Of a stretch of DNA of 64,000 nucleotides, positions 2,805 through 15,438 are shown one piece after another. The stretch lies in assembly GCA_031431435.1 (NCBI GenBank), contig JANPDI010000119.1:2615-66614 (forward strand), written 5' to 3'. Position numbers and translations under genes: made by a program. The DNA comes from Burkholderiales bacterium (GTDB lineage: Bacteria; Pseudomonadota; Gammaproteobacteria; Burkholderiales; Usitatibacteraceae). Every line of letters starts with the position of its first letter. The first letter of the stretch is position 1. Under the pieces are notes generated by a model that saw only the letters and a list, made by a program, of their open reading frames with translations, searched no databases and was not told the origin of the DNA.

Positions 2805-2921
2805 CTGAGGACACTGAGGACAGGCCCGCAAATAACCCATAAACCAGCGCCAACCAAGGCGCTGCGGCTTTAAAGCTGACTGAGGACAGATTGAGGACAG
2901 ACTGAGGACAAAATGAGGACA
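2805..2921 (+). repeat. Iteron array A: six copies of (C/T/A)TGAGGACA, forward orientation
   Basis: The copies lie at 2805, 2814, 2880, 2891, 2902 and 2913. The first two abut and the last four have an 11-bp period. The last copy contains the ATG of the RadC-like ORF. Confidence 0.85.
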
Positions 2922-3521
2922 CTTACTGACAGTTGTTCCGATGCTCTCCCGGCAAAGGGAAAACGACGCCCAAAGGCTGCGCATGAAATAGCCCCTTTGC
3001 TGGTGCCTCAGGTTCAAAAAAATCGCGCAGAGTTTCCCCTTCCCCCGGCCCTACTCGCAGCGGCCATCGAGGGCATGGCAGAGCACGAGCGGGCCGTGAT
3101 TGATGCGGCGCTAGCGATCCTGCGTGCCCGTCTGCGTGTGCCGGGCGGATATGCCAGCAGCCCAAGGGCCGCGCATGCGCTGGCAATACTGCACTTCGCA
3201 CATCACGAGCGCGAAGGCTTCGGGGTGATGTTTCTTGACGCGCAAAACGGCGTCATTGCCGTAGAGGAATTGTTTCGTGGCACCCTCACACAAACAAGCG
3301 TACACCCCCGAGAAGTGGTGAGAGCTGCACTGCGGCACAACGCGGCGAGCGTTATCTTCATGCATAACCACCCTGCGGGGGGCCCTGACCCGTCTGCTGC
3401 GGACATATACCTAACCCGGGCGCTGCAAGAGGCCCTTGCCCTCGTGGATGTGCAAACGAATGACCATTTGATAGTTGCAGGGGATCGGGTAACGAGTTTC
3501 GTAGAGCGCGGTTTGCTCTGA
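2913..3521 (+). CDS. radC: RadC-like JAB/MPN domain protein
   Basis: The C-terminal half contains FMHNHPAGGPDPSAADIYLTRAL, the JAMM-like HxHPxG..S..D motif of the RadC/DUF2466 family. The start is uncertain: the ATG at 2913 has a GAGGA Shine-Dalgarno, and an alternative ATG lies at 3075. Confidence 0.8.
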   Translation: MRTLTDSCSDALPAKGKRRPKAAHEIAPLLVPQVQKNRAEFPLPPALLAAAIEGMAEHERAVIDAALAILRARLRVPGGYASSPRAAHALAILHFAHHEREGFGVMFLDAQNGVIAVEELFRGTLTQTSVHPREVVRAALRHNAASVIFMHNHPAGGPDPSAADIYLTRALQEALALVDVQTNDHLIVAGDRVTSFVERGLL

Positions 3522-3618
3522 GCTAAATTCGCCCGCCTAGCTCGACGGAGCGAAAACCGGGAACCCTTCCCCGGCTGGTGTGGCGAACCTTTCGAGGGGG
3601 TGCAATGAAGGGGCGCGA

Positions 3619-4461
3619 ATGAAATCCAGCGAAGTAAAAAAAGGGCCGGCAGACAAGGCCCGCCACAATCGAAAGACACTGATTTCCCACAGCGACGTCA
3701 ACGGCAACGCCTGCCCATATGACGTGTGGCCGTACGCTGAGGCGTGGGACCGATTGATGAACAACCCTAAACCAGACGAAACCAAAGCCACGTGGCAACC
3801 TGAGTTGGGACGGCTTTTCGACGCTCACAAGAAAGCGAAACGTAAGTACAAAGGCCCGCTTATGCGAGCCCCCGACCAACAAAAATGGGCTGCTGAAGCG
3901 TGCTTAAGCCTCAAAAAGGAAATTGACGCGGGCGATGGAACGGCAGTCTTGCACGCAATTGCGCAATGTGCGGCGCACGGCTTAGTAATCCCCGCTTGGC
4001 TTGCGGTTGCGTTCACGGTGCGGCAGCAAGCCGTTGTTTATGGCGACGCGCGGGACTGGGTTGACGCTAAGAGTTTCGGTTCGCCAATGCGCAAGGGCGA
4101 GAATGTGCTTACTGTTCGAGCTGCGATGCAACTGGCGCCCTGGGCATACGATTGCGCAAAGCAACTGCTTGCGGATAACCCGACGCGTGCAATTGACGGG
4201 GGCCTATATGCCGACGTCGCAAATGAAATCGGATCAAGCTCAACGAATGTGCAGAAATGGATTAAGGGCTACCTGAGAGCATGCGACTTTTATGTACCCC
4301 TTAAGTATTTCAAGTCTCGACTTTTGGCCGGCCGCACGGCCGACGAAGCCGTAGCAGATTGGGACGCTGACCGCTTCCGCAAGTTTCATGAAGACTTGGG
4401 GATGACAGTGGAAAAAGTTGCGCCTAAGCCGCGCAAGAAATCTCAGAAAATTTCAAACTAA
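3619..4461 (+). CDS. Hypothetical protein (island cargo), possible C-terminal HTH
   Basis: The ORF track gives 3580-4461. The ATG at 3619 is preceded by gaagggg. I recognise no family. The segment LYADVANEIGSSSTNVQKWIKGY looks like a helix-turn-helix. Confidence 0.55.
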   Translation: MKSSEVKKGPADKARHNRKTLISHSDVNGNACPYDVWPYAEAWDRLMNNPKPDETKATWQPELGRLFDAHKKAKRKYKGPLMRAPDQQKWAAEACLSLKKEIDAGDGTAVLHAIAQCAAHGLVIPAWLAVAFTVRQQAVVYGDARDWVDAKSFGSPMRKGENVLTVRAAMQLAPWAYDCAKQLLADNPTRAIDGGLYADVANEIGSSSTNVQKWIKGYLRACDFYVPLKYFKSRLLAGRTADEAVADWDADRFRKFHEDLGMTVEKVAPKPRKKSQKISN

Positions 4462-4552
4462 TTGATAGCAAAATCTTCCTGAAGGAATGGGGTTACTCAA
4501 GCGGCGGACGATTGCATGATGCGTTGTGTTCAACCACAACGGAGTTACGCAA

Positions 4553-4771
4553 ATGCACCAAAGTCCGCAAACGAATACCGGCGAGCGCCTGCTACGCCTT
4601 CCCGATGTTGAAGCCCGCACCGGGCTAAAAAAGTCCGCGATCTATGCGGGCGTCAAAGGCAAGACATTTCCAGAGCCGTGCAAGCTTGGGCCGCGTGCCG
4701 TTGCATGGCCGGCGAGCGCCATTGATGCCTGGATAGCCGGAAAGATTGCCGGCCCACACGGAGCGCGGTAA
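4553..4771 (+). CDS. alpA: AlpA-family phage/island regulatory protein (excisionase-like HTH)
   Basis: LLRLPDVEARTGLKKSAIYAGVKGKTFPEPCKLGPRAVAWPASAIDAWI matches the AlpA/MerR-like Phage_AlpA motif. The ATG at 4553 is preceded by ggag. Confidence 0.85.
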   Translation: MHQSPQTNTGERLLRLPDVEARTGLKKSAIYAGVKGKTFPEPCKLGPRAVAWPASAIDAWIAGKIAGPHGAR

Positions 4772-5082
4772 TGAGCCCAACCGATTGTGGCACATCGGGT
4801 GAGCGCATTCGCCTGGAAGCCGACGAAGTGCGCAAGCTAGGCGCATGCAGCTATGTCGAAATTGCGAAGCGGCCGGCGTTATGTGCGCTGCTTCAATCTG
4901 CAATGGCAGCAATCGAAAACGCGATACCGGCGACGTTGGAGCACGAGGGCGAGACCTACTTTCTCTGCGTGCGCATCGCACAGGCAGAGCTGGGCATTCA
5001 CTCGACGCACAGCGAAGCAACGCCCCTCGTGCATGTGATGGCCGCAGGCGGGCGCTGGGCTGGGCACCGGCCGGGACACTGA
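4771..5082 (+). CDS. Hypothetical protein (island)
   Basis: This is a 103-aa ORF. Its ATG overlaps the alpA stop (TAATG), which suggests translational coupling. I recognise no family. Confidence 0.45.
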   Translation: MSPTDCGTSGERIRLEADEVRKLGACSYVEIAKRPALCALLQSAMAAIENAIPATLEHEGETYFLCVRIAQAELGIHSTHSEATPLVHVMAAGGRWAGHRPGH

Positions 5083-5093
5083 ACAGGACCGCT

Positions 5094-5381
5094 ATGACTA
5101 CTACTGAACCTCTACCAATCGACAGCCGCGAAGAGCAATGCAAGCGGGCGGCAGATTACATGGAAGAGCATCCGGGCTGCACGCTCCGCGAGCTGCTGAC
5201 TGGCGCGGACCTTGGCAGCGCATCAAAGGTAGTTTCCGAAATGGAGCGCACCTTTGGCTATCGCTTGCGGCGACAGCGGGACCGATCCCCCACGAGAGAC
5301 GGAACACATTGCCGGCGCGTGTTGCGTTATTCGCTTGAGGCCCGTCCCACCACCGCGCAAGGGGAGCTTTACCTGGAATGA
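5094..5381 (+). CDS. Hypothetical small protein, possible winged-helix DNA-binding
   Basis: An internal ATG at 5094 within ORF 4845-5381 gives MTTTEPLPIDSREEQCKRAADYMEEHPGCTLRELLTGADLGSASKVVSEMER... Its stop overlaps the primase start (ATGA). Confidence 0.45.
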   Translation: MTTTEPLPIDSREEQCKRAADYMEEHPGCTLRELLTGADLGSASKVVSEMERTFGYRLRRQRDRSPTRDGTHCRRVLRYSLEARPTTAQGELYLE

Positions 5382-8146
5382 ATCCACCAACAGTTGAAGC
5401 AATCCGCGCGGCGCTAGCATGCATCCCGGCAGACCTACCGCGCGACGAATGGGCCCGCGTGGCGATGGCCCTGAAATCGGAGCTGAGTGACGCCGGTTTT
5501 GAGTTGTTCGATACCTGGAGCAAATCTAGCGAGAGATACCAAGCAAAGGCGACGCGCGACACATGGAAGAGCGTGCGAGCGGGTGGGAGGGTGAAGATTG
5601 GCACCCTCTTCCACTTGGCGAAAGCGCACGGATACCAGCCAGAAACGGGGGCGCAGAGCACCCCCGCAAATGCGGAAGAGGTGAAGGCGCAAGCGAGTGC
5701 ACGGAGAGAGCGAGACAAACGCGAACGACTGGCGCGAGAAGCGGAACAGCAAGCGACAGCGGCGGAAGCGGTGCGCGTTTGGAATGCTGCAAGCGAGGCC
5801 GGCGCGTGCCCTTACCTGGAGCGAAAGGGCGTGCAAGCGCATGGCGTGCGCATCGCGGCCGGGGGCTGGCTACTCGTGCCGGTGCGAGACTTCGCGGGCA
5901 CATTGTGGAACGTGCAGCGCATCGCGCCGGCAAAGCCCGTTGAAGGCCCGGACAAACTTTTTTTGAAGGGTGGGCGCAAGAGCGGCTTATGTCATTGCAT
6001 AGGGGATCTGGAAGGCGCACCCGTGGTGCTCATTGCCGAGGGCTACGCGACGGCCGCGACACTTCACGAAGCAACCGGCCGGCCCGTGGTGATTGCGTTT
6101 GACGCAGGCAACCTGGAGAACGTGGCCCGAGTGATGCGAAAAGCAAACACGGGCGCATTACTGGCGATCTGTGGCGATGATGACCGCGAGACGCACGCCA
6201 AGACCGGCCGCAACCCTGGCCGCGATGCTGCTAGCGCGGCGGCGGATCGTGTGCACGGGGTGGCGATCTTTCCGGAAGGCTTGCCCGAAGGCGGAAGCGA
6301 CTTTAATGATATGGCCGCACATGTAGGTGGCGCGGCCGTGCGGGAATGCGTAGAGCGGGCAATTGAGCGGGCCGCGGCGGCCACAAAACAGAAGGACGAA
6401 GGCAAGGAGCCCAGCCCGAAAGGCGCGGGGCTCTTGGATCGTTTTGCCGTCAATGACGAAGGCGTGTGGTTTGCCGACTTTGACCAGGAGGGACGCGCCA
6501 AGTCTCCGCTTTGGGTTTGCACCCGGCTTGAGGTGCCCGCGTTGACGCGCGACGCAGACGGGCAAGGCTGGGGCTATCTGCTGGAGTTCACAGACCCGGC
6601 CGGGAATGCGCGGCAGTGGGCAATGCCGGCGCGAATGCTCGCGGGCGATGGCACTGAGTTTCGAGGCGTATTGATGGCGCAAGGGCTGCGCATTGCGGCG
6701 AGCACGCGGGCCCGCGCATTGCTCGCACAGTTCATACAGTCGCGCCAACCCGAAGAGCACGCGCGGTGCACAGACCGCATAGGGTGGCACGGGGCCGCGT
6801 TTGTATTGCCCCGCGAAACGCTAGGCGATAGCGGAGAGCGCATTGTTTTTCAGACAGACGGAACGGTAGAGAACACGTTTCGACAGCGTGGCCAACTGGA
6901 GCACTGGCGAGATCGGGTGGCGCAATACTGCGTGGGAAATTCGCGGCTTGTGTTTGCCGTCTCGTGCGCTTTTGCCGGGCCCATTTTGCGGCCGGCTGGC
7001 ATTGATAGCGGCGGGTTTCACCTTCGCGGGGACTCAAGCTGCGGGAAAACCACGGCGCTGCGAGTGGCGGCGTCTGTATACGGTGGCCCCAGCTACGTGC
7101 AGCGGTGGCGCACAACGGATAACGCACTGGAAGCTATCGCGGCGCAACACTGCGACGGGCTGTTGATACTTGATGAGCTGGCGCAAGTGGATTCCAAGAC
7201 GGCCGGCGAATGTGCCTACATGCTTGCAAATGAAAGTTCCAAGGCGCGGAGCACGAGAACAGGACAGGCCCGAGCGCGATTGACCTGGCGTCTGTTGTTT
7301 CTCAGTGCAGGCGAGATTGGACTAGCAGCGCACATGGCCGAAAGTGGCAAGCGTGCCCGGCCGGGGCAAGAGCTGCGCATGGCCGATGTGCCCGCCGATG
7401 CTGGCGCGGGGCTGGGCATCTTTGAAGAGCTGCACGGAAGCGAGAACGGCGCGACGCTAGCGCAATACTTGGCGAAGGCGAGCGAAGCACAACACGGCAT
7501 TGCTGGCCGCACGTTTCTCGATTGGCTGGTAGCCCATGCCGCCACACTGCGTGAGCGCACACGGGCCGGCATTGAGCGCCTGGCGCGGCTTTGGATAGTG
7601 GTGGGCGCTTCGGGACAAGTGCAGCGGGTGGGCCGGCGTTTTGCGGCGGTGGCGATTGCCGGCGAGCTGGCGACAGAGGCGGGGCTTACCGGATGGCCCG
7701 AAGGGGAAGCGACCGGCGCGGCCAAGGCGTGCTTTGATGCGTGGCTAGATTCACGGGGCGGCATCGGCAATGCGGAGGATCGGCAAATGTTGCGGCAAGT
7801 GCGGGCGTTTATCGAGGCGCACGGTGAAGCCCGCTTTACAAGCTGGAGCCGGGCGACAGATGACCATGCGCCAAAGACAATGCACCGCGCTGGTGTACGT
7901 AGAGCGGTAAGCGAAGCGGGCGGCGAGGTGATCGGCTGGGAGTATTTCTTTCTTGTGGAGACTTTCCGCAATGAAGTGTGCGAGGGCTTCGACTGGAAGG
8001 CCGTGCTAAAGCTCTTGAGGGATCGGGGGCACTTGGTTCCTGACAAAGGCCGGCCGTTTGACTGCAAGCCCCGCTTGCCCGGCTTTGGGCCTACTGTCTG
8101 CTATTGCGTGAAGTCCTCAATACTCGATAGCGACACAGATGATTGA
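5378..8146 (+). CDS. Primase-helicase (PriCT-2 N-terminal, Toprim, and DUF927-type P-loop NTPase domains)
   Basis: This is a 922-aa ORF. The N-terminal W..V..AL....G..LF..WS pattern (DEWARVAMALKSELSDAGFELFDTWSKSSERY) fits PriCT-2. The Toprim acidic motifs are VLIAEGYATA and ICGDDDRE. The Walker A motif is GDSSCGKTT, and a Walker B-like motif is LLILDEL. Confidence 0.85.
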   Translation: MNPPTVEAIRAALACIPADLPRDEWARVAMALKSELSDAGFELFDTWSKSSERYQAKATRDTWKSVRAGGRVKIGTLFHLAKAHGYQPETGAQSTPANAEEVKAQASARRERDKRERLAREAEQQATAAEAVRVWNAASEAGACPYLERKGVQAHGVRIAAGGWLLVPVRDFAGTLWNVQRIAPAKPVEGPDKLFLKGGRKSGLCHCIGDLEGAPVVLIAEGYATAATLHEATGRPVVIAFDAGNLENVARVMRKANTGALLAICGDDDRETHAKTGRNPGRDAASAAADRVHGVAIFPEGLPEGGSDFNDMAAHVGGAAVRECVERAIERAAAATKQKDEGKEPSPKGAGLLDRFAVNDEGVWFADFDQEGRAKSPLWVCTRLEVPALTRDADGQGWGYLLEFTDPAGNARQWAMPARMLAGDGTEFRGVLMAQGLRIAASTRARALLAQFIQSRQPEEHARCTDRIGWHGAAFVLPRETLGDSGERIVFQTDGTVENTFRQRGQLEHWRDRVAQYCVGNSRLVFAVSCAFAGPILRPAGIDSGGFHLRGDSSCGKTTALRVAASVYGGPSYVQRWRTTDNALEAIAAQHCDGLLILDELAQVDSKTAGECAYMLANESSKARSTRTGQARARLTWRLLFLSAGEIGLAAHMAESGKRARPGQELRMADVPADAGAGLGIFEELHGSENGATLAQYLAKASEAQHGIAGRTFLDWLVAHAATLRERTRAGIERLARLWIVVGASGQVQRVGRRFAAVAIAGELATEAGLTGWPEGEATGAAKACFDAWLDSRGGIGNAEDRQMLRQVRAFIEAHGEARFTSWSRATDDHAPKTMHRAGVRRAVSEAGGEVIGWEYFFLVETFRNEVCEGFDWKAVLKLLRDRGHLVPDKGRPFDCKPRLPGFGPTVCYCVKSSILDSDTDD

Positions 8147-8280
8147 GGCGCAGCCGTTGACCGGCCGGCGCGGCGGGGGCGCGGGAAGGATTCTTTTCGC
8201 GCGGCGCGTTGCGTTGTCGAGCGGTTCACCCCCAAGGAAAAAGGGGACACGTTACGTCTGCGCACCTGTGCGGACTCAGT

Positions 8281-8414
8281 TGTCCTCAGTGTCCTCAGTC
8301 GCATTGCAATGTCCTCAGTTTGCAACTGAGGACAGCATTCCCCTTATGCGGCGCGGGTTTGCGTGCGTTTCGGGGGTTTGTCCTCAGTGTCCTCAGTGTC
8401 CTCAGTGTCCTCAG
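8281..8414 (-). repeat. Iteron array B: seven copies of TGTCCTCAG (the reverse complement of array A's unit) plus one forward copy
   Basis: Reverse copies lie at 8281, 8290, 8310, 8379, 8388, 8397 and 8406. The last four are perfectly tandem with a 9-bp period. A forward copy at 8326-8334 forms a palindrome with the copy at 8310-8318 (tgtcctcag-tttgcaa-ctgaggaca). Confidence 0.85.
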
Positions 8415-8600
8415 TCGAAACGAGCTGAAGCGGGGCGCATGTCCGCGACGTTGCCCTACTCTCAGAGGCGGGCGCTAGGCAGAGAAAAAATTGCGGGTCC
8501 TTCCTGAGGTGTTTGCATGCGGCGCTTCCGACCGCAGCAATGGCCTAGTGAGTTGTGTTTGATAGTTACGCAACTGTTGCGTGCAACACGTCGCATGCAT

Positions 8601-8610: not shown

Positions 8611-9055
8611 CGGGTAAAAAGTCTGGGGTTTGCCGTTTCTATACCGGTTGGCGGACACCGCGTGCATAAGCGGGAGTTACGGTAGGGGGGTACTGGTGAG
8701 CGGCAAGGGGAGGGGCGGTTAAATCCTTGCGGCGCTCAATAAAAAGACCGTAGTAGTGACCTAATTTTTAGCGCCGCAAGTTTCGTGGGTGGGGGGTGGT
8801 AAAACACGCTGCATGATGTTTGGGTCCTTCCTGGCGTTTTTATGTATACGCATCGGAAGACCCCGAGCCGCTTTCAGAAACACGATGCGTGGTTTGGGTT
8901 AACCGGTTCAACATGTTGCATGGTGATTGGATCGAGGCGGCGAGAGTGCGGCCACACGGTAGACGCAGAATCAAATTTGTGCTATTTTGAATATGATTAA
9001 AGCCGTTAAATATGCAAAATGCGGGAAAATGCAGCATTCGGGTGTTATTTCAACT

Positions 9056-9153
9056 AGCACCACGCAAAATGCATATTTTTTACGCTAAATCATTGTCTTT
9101 ATTGAGTATTTTTCTTGCACTGTTTTAGCGCCACGCGAAACGCATATTTTTTT
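9056..9153 (+). promoter_or_regulatory. AT-rich region with two direct repeats of about 26 bp upstream of the HTH gene (candidate operators/promoter)
   Basis: agcaccacgcaaaatgcatatttttt (9056-9081) matches agcgccacgcgaaacgcatatttttt (9127-9152) with 3 transitions. Related gcaaaatgc words occur at 9013-9035. Confidence 0.4.
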
Positions 9154-9226
9154 CGGCGCGATTACAGCATAAGCAGTATCAAATAAATCGAGGGTTCTAC
9201 GCCCTCACTTTTGGAAGGGGTACACC

Positions 9227-9484
9227 ATGAATGCAGAAGAATTAAAGGCGGCGCTCCGCGCCCTTGGGTGGAAACAGGCTGACCTAGCGCGGCGCGTAGA
9301 GGTTGCGCCCACGACCGTATCACGATGGATCGATGGTGACGGCGTGCCTGGGCCCGTGGCCGCATACCTTGGCATAGCTTTGCAGCTCCAGCGGCTTTAC
9401 GCTGAGTTTGTCGCGCCGCCGGCACGCGAACGAAAGCGGCGGGAGGCGCGGCCAAAAAAAGCAGCAGCAGGCGCGGCCAAATAA
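9227..9484 (+). CDS. XRE-family helix-turn-helix protein
   Basis: This is an 85-aa ORF. LKAALRALGWKQADLARRVEVAPTTVSRWIDG is a canonical HTH_3-type motif. A gaagggg Shine-Dalgarno lies upstream. The basic Lys/Ala tail is encoded by a tandem repeat. Confidence 0.75.
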   Translation: MNAEELKAALRALGWKQADLARRVEVAPTTVSRWIDGDGVPGPVAAYLGIALQLQRLYAEFVAPPARERKRREARPKKAAAGAAK

Positions 9485-9518
9485 AGCAGCAGCAGGCGCG
9501 GCCAAAACAAAGCAGCAT
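9444..9518 (+). repeat. Three tandem copies of a 25-bp unit (aggcgcggccaaaNaaagcagcagc)
   Basis: The copies are 9444-9468, 9469-9493 and 9494-9518. The stop codon of the HTH gene (TAA, 9482-9484) lies in copy 2, where copy 1 has AAA. Confidence 0.85.
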
Positions 9519-9527
9519 GGCCGCGCT

Positions 9528-9548
9528 GGGGGTAGCTTTGGGGGTAGG
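9528..9548 (+). repeat. Two GGGGGTAG motifs next to attR (candidate arm-type sites)
   Basis: gggggtagc lies at 9528-9536 and gggggtagg at 9540-9548. The GGGGGTA core is the same as in the cluster at 1478-1536. Confidence 0.45.
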
Positions 9549-9610: not shown

Positions 9611-9625
9611 GCCCCAGGCCACCAA
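9611..9625 (+). repeat. attR core (direct repeat copy 2; displaced tRNA-Phe 3' fragment)
   Basis: It is identical over 15 bp to 1360-1374 and is followed by a terminator that looks like the original tRNA terminator. Confidence 0.8.
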
Positions 9626-14916: not shown

Positions 14917-15438
14917 CTAGGCGACGACAACCAATTCACGCTGATATCGTGACGCATTGTCGACGTAATGTTGCGCGATCCCGTGAATCATTGTGATTTC
15001 GTCATCACTTAACTGCCTGACGACCCTGCCCGGCGCGCCAAGTACCAACGATCCGTCCGGAATGACCTTACCCTCTGCAATCAACGATCCCGCACCGATC
15101 AGACAATTGCGTCCGATGACGGCATTGTTCAGTATCACCGCTTTGATGCCGATGAGTGAGCCCTCTTTCACAAGACAGCCATGCAGCATGACCATATGCC
15201 CGACCGAAACATTTTTCTCCAGTGTGAGCGCTACGCCCTCATCGGTATGCAGCACCGCGCCGTCCTGAATATTGACGTTTTCGCCGAGCGTGATCGTGTT
15301 ATTGTCGCCGCGGATGGTGACACCAAACCAGACGTTGGCATTTTTTTCCAGCACCACGTCACCAATGACGCTTGCATTTTCCGCCACGTAGTTGTTGCCG
15401 TGCAATTGCGGGGTCTTGTCGCCGAGCGAATAAAGCAT
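14917..15438 (-). CDS. Gamma-class carbonic anhydrase-like / hexapeptide-repeat (LbH) protein
   Basis: The ORF has YVAENASVIGDVVLEKNANVWFGVTIRGDNNTITLGENVNIQDGAVLH.. with left-handed beta-helix repeats and His ligands typical of YrdA/PaaY-like proteins. Confidence 0.85.
   Translation of the reverse strand: MLYSLGDKTPQLHGNNYVAENASVIGDVVLEKNANVWFGVTIRGDNNTITLGENVNIQDGAVLHTDEGVALTLEKNVSVGHMVMLHGCLVKEGSLIGIKAVILNNAVIGRNCLIGAGSLIAEGKVIPDGSLVLGAPGRVVRQLSDDEITMIHGIAQHYVDNASRYQRELVVVA

Follow-up and report, generated by a model that had tools for sequence, protein, structure and literature searches.

Paired inverted repeat arrays covary with the C-terminal tail of a primase-helicase in a small tRNA-Phe island of a Burkholderiales bacterium

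The stretch of DNA analysed here, a window of 64 kb from a Burkholderiales bacterium of the Usitatibacteraceae (assembly GCA_031431435.1, contig JANPDI010000119.1, positions 2,615 to 66,614), contains a genomic island of about 8.25 kb in which two arrays of one short repeat, A and B, enclose the cargo and replication genes. All genes of the island lie on the + strand, and coordinates are window positions. The island extends from a tRNA-Phe (GAA) gene identified with ARAGORN, the integration target (1298-1373, +), to a 15-bp direct repeat of the tRNA 3' end. The attL core, GCCCCAGGCCACCAA (1360-1374), is contained in the tRNA gene's 3' end, and its direct copy (9611-9625; direct repeat D9) is the attR core. 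The first gene, int (1555-2781, +), encodes a P4-family tyrosine integrase with the Pfam domains Arm-DNA-bind_3, Phage_int_M and Phage_integrase. After array A come two cargo genes, one for a RadC-like JAB protein (2913-3521, +; Pfam, NCBIfam), the other a 293-residue open reading frame with no family match in Pfam, PHROGs, PADLOC or NCBIfam (3580-4461, +); neither gave a PADLOC match. They are followed by alpA (4526-4771, +), encoding an AlpA-family regulator or excisionase (Pfam Phage_AlpA), by a 103-residue open reading frame without assigned function whose start overlaps the alpA stop (4771-5082, +), and by the gene for a 95-residue winged-helix protein (HTH_39; 5094-5381, +), whose true start is at 5094 and which is coupled through an ATGA overlap to pri-rep (5378-8146, +). 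The 922-residue product of the latter, Pri-Rep, consists of a PriCT_2 and Toprim_3 primase fused to a DUF927 helicase (Pfam; 2.8e-92 for DUF927). Array B is located downstream of pri-rep, and an XRE-type helix-turn-helix protein (Pfam HTH_3; 9227-9484, +) is encoded beyond it. Independent calls on two contigs with 97% and 89% identical proteins (P0001 and P0002) returned the same set of 103-, 95-, 922- and 85-residue genes, the 103-residue frame included. Pfam and PHROGs/domain scans recognised no terS, packaging, capsid, capsid-remodelling or interference gene among the island proteins.

The repeat, CTGAGGACA, has 12 exact matches in the window, every one within array A or B, compared with 0.24 on average, and never more than 1, in dinucleotide-preserving shuffles. 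Two further copies, TTGAGGACA at 2891 and ATGAGGACA at 2913, are in register in array A and carry one mismatch each, so that of the 14 copies counted in the original prediction 12 are exact. Array A (2805-2921, +) comprises six copies, all forward: an abutting doublet (2805 and 2814, spanning 2805-2822), a 57-nt spacer, and a quartet phased at 11 bp (2880, 2891, 2902 and 2913, spanning 2880-2921). Array B (8281-8414, -) comprises seven reverse copies and one forward copy. Its proximal set is formed by the reverse copies at 8281, 8290 and 8310 and by the forward copy at 8326, which makes a dyad, tgtcctcag-N7-ctgaggaca, with the reverse copy 8310-8318; after a 44-nt spacer, the distal set consists of four reverse copies in a perfect 9-bp tandem (8379-8414). 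Array A starts 24 bp past the int stop and array B 135 bp past the pri-rep stop, while the att cores are 1.2-1.4 kb away and adjoin neither array. These coordinates bear out the original prediction as to the copy number, orientation and phasing within each array, the palindrome, the confinement of the full 9-mer to the two arrays, and their placement just after int and the primase-helicase gene, away from the att cores. The repeats are non-random and form two clusters only. The last copy of array A had also been credited with both start signals of the radC-like gene. It does supply the ATG, at 2913-2915 in the sixth, degenerate copy; the GAGGA Shine-Dalgarno sequence belongs to the fifth copy (2904-2908). 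In relatives, too, the radC frame starts at the xTG of the last repeat, in frame with the RadC homology, the codon being ATG here, TTG in the relative L004 and GTG in L061.

The original prediction had proposed to look in related islands for paired arrays of their own at the same two positions. Pri-Rep has 1,932 homologues at E <= 1e-20, mostly from Burkholderiales, from which a genome set of 80 loci encoding homologues of 52-72% identity was examined, the repeats being located by a k-mer scan and then by a generic pattern scan. Paired inverted arrays were indeed found at these positions in at least 30-35 of the 80 loci, and most loci with sufficient flanking DNA have both, written in a different 8- or 9-mer. 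At least 15 distinct 8-mer cores occur, among them TGAGGACA, TGGGAACA, CGGGGACA, TGGGGACA, TGGGGGCA, CGGAGACA, CGGGAGCA, TGCGGACA and TGTGGGCA, with the consensus YGNGRRCA; the fuller consensus of the iterons, as we will call these repeats, is A-N-[T/C]-G-N-G-[G/A]-[A/G/C]-C-A in the relatives. Array A always lies 40-300 bp after int; it opens with a doublet, which a spacer of about 47 nt separates from three or four further copies at an 11-bp phase. Array B follows pri-rep, as a rule at +130 to +700 bp, in the layout ---+--, and the usual copy number is six plus six. In 30 of 35 loci, the motif called independently from array A recurs at least four times in one downstream cluster. In the relatives, the array B spacer averages 0.48 in G+C content, the locus as a whole 0.62. 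Array B has four copies in its distal set here and two in most relatives, including one with an 89% identical protein (L167, 4210-4226). Since this close relative has the canonical two, the 9-bp tandem is, by comparison, expanded in the present island, and the change in copy number looks like the outcome of slippage.

The order of the elements proved just as constant. The islands occupy different tRNAs, with int either adjoining the tRNA or lying at the far end of the island, and the order on the excised circle is the same across relatives: pri-rep, B, attP, int, A. The full-length contigs examined showed no terminal overlaps that would mark excised circles. On one contig of a Rhodoferax metagenome-assembled genome (L034, 7880 bp; 3536-3602 and 5880-5985), two different islands adjoin each other without an intervening tRNA. 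Of the first, the contig has pri-rep and an array B with TGCGGACA, and of the second, int and an array A with AGGGGACA, each island retaining its own iteron word. That this contig might be circularly permuted was considered and rejected, because it holds two adjacent islands with separate iterons.

The diversity of the iterons made it possible to ask which protein tracks their sequence. Covariation was scored as per-column mutual information, permutation-corrected for bias, over the roughly 900 columns of Pri-Rep. All four variable iteron positions have their best column within residues 887-907 (VPDKGRPFDCKPRLPGFGPTV), whose codons occupy 8036-8098 (+): C896/P888 for position 1 (z 6.8), V907 for position 3 (z 5.2), P898 for position 5 (z 6.7) and P905 for position 6 (z 10.2). 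Of the other proteins, only Int and AlpA are universal, and their maxima were weaker and scattered (z <= 3.9 for AlpA). The covariation with the C-terminus of the primase-helicase that the original prediction had put forward as a check is thus found at all four variable positions. Sorting the alignment made the pattern readable. PDK-GRxFD(895)C is accompanied by T at position 1, and TVKE-xxRY(S/T)V by CC; where RLPGxG is followed by N or M, the iteron has GGGCA. R or W at 907 pairs with G at position 3, and T, A, V or N at this residue with A or C. At residue 898, Q or H pairs with GGGAACA, in near relatives of proteins that combine P898 with GGGGACA.

These associations do not simply follow descent. 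A tree made from the N-terminal 850 residues requires, by parsimony, 8-11 changes of iteron state per variable position, and the nearest N-terminal neighbours of N/M905 proteins differ in both residue and iteron; from these two observations we take iteron type to be independent of the protein tree, and the sequences indicate at least five independent associations between residue 905 and the iteron. Correlation of protein with iteron divergence in sliding windows of 30-40 residues was weak for every protein (r <= 0.24), which we attribute to a specificity resting on a few residues that do not follow the protein tree. A statistic on close pairs, asking whether iterons differ where residues differ, recovered the position-1 columns; it is ill-suited to many-to-one codes, and parsimony and nearest neighbours were used instead. 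The residue-to-base rules were then applied to 80 metagenome loci, reduced by deduplication to 36 islands with C-termini not identical to those of the genome set. In this partly independent set, D895 with T and T/S895 with C at position 1 held in 32 of the 36 islands (Fisher p 6.5e-6), R/W907 with G in 34 (p 4e-4), N/M905 with G in 33 (p 1e-3) and Q/H898 with A in 31 (p 8e-3). Taken together, these comparisons show repeats that are conserved in layout and, as far as covariation can tell, co-evolving with the Pri-Rep tail.

In its modelled fold, the same tail may be related to a known iteron-binding protein. A profile of 24 homologues compared with the PDB matched, over the helicase core, the Rep protein of the Staphylococcus aureus pathogenicity island (SaPI) SaPIbov1 (8tch; E 1.6e-19, profile 448-671 against chain 120-346) and the SCCmec helicase Cch (5dgk; E 8e-9), placing the Pri-Rep helicase in the AAA+ self-loading Rep family; a sub-threshold match to the Cch1 model was obtained in NCBIfam. 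An AlphaFold2 model of residues 775-922 (pLDDT 84, pTM 0.75) has helices at 873-882 and earlier, and then a strand and turn region that holds residues 887-907. The best PDB match of this model in Foldseek is again 8tch, with a probability of 1.0 and a query-normalised TM score of 0.54 over 136 columns; the next matches are a winged-helix TcpK-oriT complex and PriRep1 with DNA, and the viral ones are Cch-like and DUF927 proteins. Phage matches to Pri-Rep are mostly limited to the PriCT_2/Toprim part.

SaPI Reps are self-loading helicases whose C-terminal winged-helix domain recognises iterons, and the SaPI origin (ori) has 6-12 iterons immediately 3' of rep, in both orientations, around an AT-rich centre (PMC9371898). 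In Gram-negative phage-inducible chromosomal islands (PICIs), int, alpA, pri-rep and ori are unidirectional, pri-rep-ori maintains a plasmid, and the ori is described solely 3' of rep (PMC6092414). The present island resembles both. Its helicase core is homologous to SaPIbov1 Rep, the best fold match of its tail is the same protein, and its iterons 3' of pri-rep form two sets about a spacer with at least one copy inverted. The fusion of primase and helicase recalls PriRep5 of SaPI5 (PMC9371898), and int, alpA and pri-rep are co-directional in a small island at tRNA-Phe, as in Gram-negative PICIs and PICMIs. On these features, array B would be compatible with a SaPI/PICI-type ori apart from the composition of its spacer. 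The island differs from SaPIs and PICIs in its second conserved array, kilobases away and next to int, in its iterons of 8-9 nt instead of 5-6, and in that packaging, capsid-remodelling and interference genes were not recognised in the domain scans.

The second array calls to mind satellite phage P4, which the original prediction had invoked as an analogy. Read in the sense of alpha, the P4 record runs ori, ORF88 (Phage_AlpA), cI, epsilon, ORF151, ORF106, alpha, terminator and crr, and then attP, int, non-essential genes, cos and psu/delta/sid, back to ori; the circle of the island would run A, cargo, alpA, two small genes, pri-rep, B, xre, attP, int and back to A. Both therefore have the circular order iteron site, alpA-like gene, small genes, primase-helicase, iteron site, attP and int, and in both, by analogy, two separated iteron regions would serve one primase-helicase, C-terminal binding being putative in the island. 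The P4 ori has six TGTTCACC repeats in the layout ---+--, with start-to-start spacings of 10, 11, 22, 43 and 10, and array B has the layout ---+--(--), with spacings of 9, 20, 16, 53 and 9. The Toprim part of Pri-Rep is 34% identical to residues 131-314 of P4 alpha over 200 residues (BLASTP, E 3e-17), P4 Int has the same three Pfam domains as the Int of the island, and both elements have a Phage_AlpA member. A small gene also lies directly upstream of the primase-helicase in both. In P4 it is cnr (ORF106), whose product modulates the DNA binding of alpha; in the island this position is held by the 95-residue winged-helix gene, for which no homology to cnr was found and which is replaced by unrelated genes in many relatives.

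The two systems part ways in the rest of the protein. P4 alpha has the domains Zn_Ribbon_Prim, D5_N, DUF5906 and Pox_D5, as opposed to a DUF927/SaPI-Rep-type helicase in the island. No homology was detectable between the C-termini (hhalign probability 0.1%, a 59-sequence profile against the last 154 residues of alpha), and no P4 alpha structure is among the Foldseek matches listed. The ori-like array of the island occupies the position of crr in P4, the cargo sits between array A and alpA, and the island lacks cos. The P4-like satellite is defined by psu, delta, sid, epsilon and an alpha with Pox_D5 (PF03288; PMC8628076). Judged by its genes, the island is not a P4-like satellite under this published definition, since psu, delta, sid, epsilon and Pox_D5 were all absent from the island proteins. 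The resemblance to P4 thus goes beyond the analogy first proposed in gene order, ori layout and Toprim homology, and stops at the helicase and DNA-binding parts, which belong to the SaPI-Rep/DUF927 lineage. From the sequence comparison, the island appears to share the two-site design of P4 and part of its ancestry. The P4 record annotates crr as 'cis required region for replication'; to our knowledge, the reason why P4 needs this distant second iteron region has never been settled.

Relatives exist as circles. The 11.2-kb element pHS87b of P. aeruginosa (NZ_KR106191.1) has a P4-family int and a split Toprim/DUF927 pair, with about 38% identity over 70% of Pri-Rep, and was found in two forms, one integrated at tRNA-Thr, the other circular and about 2-fold the more abundant (PMC4739549). 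It resembles the island in its small size, int and Toprim/DUF927 homologue, and in the tRNA-integrated form that coexists with the circular one. It differs in a capsid gene, seen in the homologous Pseudomonas 'phage' vB_Pae_U10 (L084, 10,183 bp). This 10-11 kb element has been deposited as both phage and plasmid. The vB_Pae_U10 record contains int, AlpA-like genes, the split Toprim and DUF927 pair and a GpN-type capsid gene, and the element, from its gene content, looks like a satellite or an integrative plasmid; no family-type iteron arrays were found in it. In E. coli, a TOPRIM-DUF927 element (L085, NZ_CP148430.1) occurs in a single strain in two forms, a closed circle of 12,152 bp and a chromosomal copy, and has mirror-image iteron arrays of TGAACCAAC at 6540-6650 and 8436-8556, 1.9 kb apart; its genes include PerC, Icd-like, AntA/B and int. 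The 271-kb conjugative plasmid NZ_CP009155.1 of B. pseudomallei (L086) contains an island-like segment whose homologue is 42% identical. On the 3' side of this gene, the segment has TTGGAGATA iterons arranged as ---+-- (locus coordinates 15019-15121), and 10 kb upstream, ahead of parA, it has another array, ++ -- ++ (4768-4880). PICMIs, minimal satellites of 6-11 kb in Vibrionaceae with the genes int-alpA-prim, share the small size, a primase gene and the lack of a packaging module, and differ in integrating next to fis. The PIME elements (repA, trbJ/L) were set aside as a different family.

A comparable division of labour is known from replicons with one initiator and two repeat clusters: in the iteron plasmids P1 (incC/incA) and F (incB/incC), origin and control arrays flank rep, and oriP of Epstein-Barr virus combines a dyad element with a family of repeats. 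There, the dyad-type cluster fires and the direct-repeat cluster regulates or enhances, by looping or handcuffing. The island differs from these systems in that its putative initiator, itself a helicase and primase, is unrelated to their initiator families, and in that the arrays of its family are 5-11 kb apart across variable cargo.

We conclude, with a probability of about 0.7, that both arrays are iterons of Pri-Rep and that the island is a minimal integrative element with a SaPI/PICI-type Rep-iteron replicon in a P4-like split format. In this proposal, a small winged-helix-like domain at the extreme C-terminus of Pri-Rep would read the iterons of both arrays. Array B would be the origin proper, where the self-loading helicase would assemble and melt the DNA, and array A a second Pri-Rep binding locus that partners B as crr partners ori in P4. 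Pri-Rep bound to both arrays would bridge them, licensing or limiting initiation. Occupancy of array A might besides restrict the transcription that enters the cargo and replication genes, because the array covers the radC ribosome-binding site and start codon; with radC starting inside the last iteron, a bound protein would occupy the transcription unit's 5' end. After excision from tRNA-Phe mediated by Int and AlpA, a circle with the order pri-rep, B, xre, attP, int, A, cargo, alpA, pri-rep would form, and this 8.25-kb circle would replicate in the manner of an integrative plasmid or a minimal satellite. For this island, the contact of Pri-Rep with the DNA, initiation at B, the part played by A, looping and autonomous replication are inferred from sequence.

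Several observations weigh against this proposal. The spacer of array B is not AT-rich here (G+C content of 0.64 compared with 0.57 locally), the scan around the arrays found no sigma-70-like promoter near array A, array B lies 1-6 kb beyond pri-rep in some relatives, and a Salmonella relative (a 7-kb record) has a single array. The Foldseek E value of the tail against 8tch is modest (3e-3). The residue-to-base rules miss two to five of every 36 islands, the metagenome and genome sets share ancestry, and the Pri-Rep alignment yielded no determinant for CGGGAACA versus CGGGGACA. Finally, A and B differ by one base in two relatives, so that A need not match B strictly: in L009, A has TGGGAACA and B TGGGGACA, the protein having Q898, the residue paired with the word of array A, and in L038, A has GGGGACA and B GGGGGCA. 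These mismatches suggest either a tolerance of one mismatch or recombination between an int-A and a rep-B module.

Some of these points are equally those expected if array B alone were the origin and array A an operator or roadblock for Pri-Rep autoregulation and copy control, with no part in initiation. We regard this as possible, if on the unlikely side. Pri-Rep on the four phased copies would then repress or insulate the transcription that runs from int into radC, the cargo, alpA and pri-rep, comparable to the control seen in iteron plasmids. Array A is all-direct, on one helix face, and heads a co-oriented string of genes; it overlaps the radC Shine-Dalgarno sequence and start codon in three diverged islands; SaPI and PICI replicons require one ori only, 3' of rep (PMC9371898, PMC6092414); and the one-base mismatches and the solitary Salmonella array point the same way. 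However, array A retains the origin-like succession of doublet, spacer of about 47 nt and further copies in nearly all relatives, whatever gene comes next, and the overlap with a start codon is limited to the TGAGGACA group. The annotation of the P4 record has the second site required in cis, and the distant E. coli and Burkholderia relatives also have two origin-like arrays. An operator function is compatible with the split-replicon proposal and does not exclude it: a crr-like role of array A and a role in copy control are not mutually exclusive.

The remaining explanations take the arrays away from Pri-Rep altogether. Binding by the 95-residue winged-helix protein, XRE, the 293-residue protein or AlpA, all of which are or may be DNA-binding, appears improbable. 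XRE homologues were detectable in 20 of the 80 loci and homologues of the 293-residue protein in two, which disfavours the XRE protein and the orphan HTH-like protein that the original prediction had kept open as binders. The 95-residue protein was apparently associated with iteron type in 19 loci and was rejected as the determinant, as the place immediately before pri-rep is taken by genes of at least three unrelated families, and one and the same iteron type is found with different families. AlpA is universal, but its covariation is weak and scattered, and the Pri-Rep tail contains the strongest columns for every one of the four positions. It is less probable still that the arrays are arm-type sites of the integrase or recombination enhancers of an extended attP. 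Although they flank attP and int on the excised circle, A always follows int, and an arm-binding domain is present in Int, the distance from the arrays to the core is 1.2-1.4 kb, beyond the few-hundred-bp range of arm sites, and a separate repeat (GGGGGTA here, TGCCCCC in relatives) fills the arm positions at both att ends; moreover, Int covaries with the iterons in no focused manner, and the two adjacent islands of L034 each have their own motif. Hardly credible, lastly, is a reading of the arrays as terminal repeats of a nested transposon-like element or as sites for a host factor such as DnaA. Inverted multi-copy ends are known from Tn7 and Mu, and the inverted similarity between the arrays reaches weakly into the spacers (I1, 48 nt, 77%), yet no transposase was found between the arrays in Pfam and PHROGs/domain scans and their place relative to int and pri-rep is constant at different tRNAs, which also speaks against the nested-element ends envisaged in the original prediction. 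For a host factor, 15 specificities within one bacterial order exclude a constant reader.

The Rep-iteron replicon is a known kind; what stands out here is that a second array is conserved and that residues can be read against bases. Small islands that carry int, alpA and a primase, but in which no transfer or packaging genes can be recognised, are very frequent and for the most part unclassified, and a large Burkholderiales family with what would be a complete cis/trans replication module makes their lifestyle, as integrative plasmid or minimal satellite, testable. For the question of P4 crr, the family would be a natural experiment, with dozens of variants in which both sites change together. 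The approximately four residues that appear to set iteron specificity are targets for swaps, for the prediction of incompatibility among islands resident in one cell and for orthogonal replicons. The family also links two replicon types, its primase part and gene order being P4-like and its helicase and DNA-binding parts SaPI Rep-like. A wider generalisation, which we consider doubtful and offer tentatively, is that an obligatory two-site origin, straddling attP-int on the excised circle, is the general rule in Toprim-DUF927 mobile elements, those of Burkholderiales islands as well as the PICI-like circles of E. coli. Initiation would depend on one self-loading primase-helicase bridging both arrays, with specificity set by a re-writable residue-base code (895, 898, 905, 907). 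If this were true, a code of about one C-terminal wing residue per base would let many mutually compatible elements coexist, even side by side at a single site.

Other repeats were noted in the island and its relatives. GGGGGTA occurs nine times in the window against 2.55 expected, and seven of these copies are near the att ends: five (three forward, two reverse) in the attL-int interval (1478-1536) and two just inside attR (9528-9546, +). Because their positions match those expected for such sites, the two clusters, distinct from the iterons, are probably arm-type sites of Int. In relatives, an arm-like repeat, TGCCCCC/GGGGGCA, is present in 3-8 copies at both island ends, which in L041, for instance, places it at -11807..-11775 and at +842..+885 as counted from the primase stop; in L020 and L052, the iteron is TGGGGGCA, a word used elsewhere as arm-like repeat. 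The xre gene, located after array B here, lies after array A in most of the relatives that have it. Upstream of it, an AT-rich stretch (9055-9155) contains two 30-bp direct repeats, TAGCRCCACGCRAAAYGCATATTTTTT, and a 25-bp unit is repeated three times in tandem over its 3' end (9426-9510). Downstream of the primase stop, tandem repeats of other kinds are found in single relatives: GCCTAC, a 6-bp unit, repeated 8 and then 5 times in L010 (+110..+345), CATTGC repeated about 20 times in L053 (+427..+545), and in L066 an 8-bp tandem of GGTGAACA (+629 and +1135..+1153), which is the reverse complement of the P4 type-1 iteron TGTTCACC.

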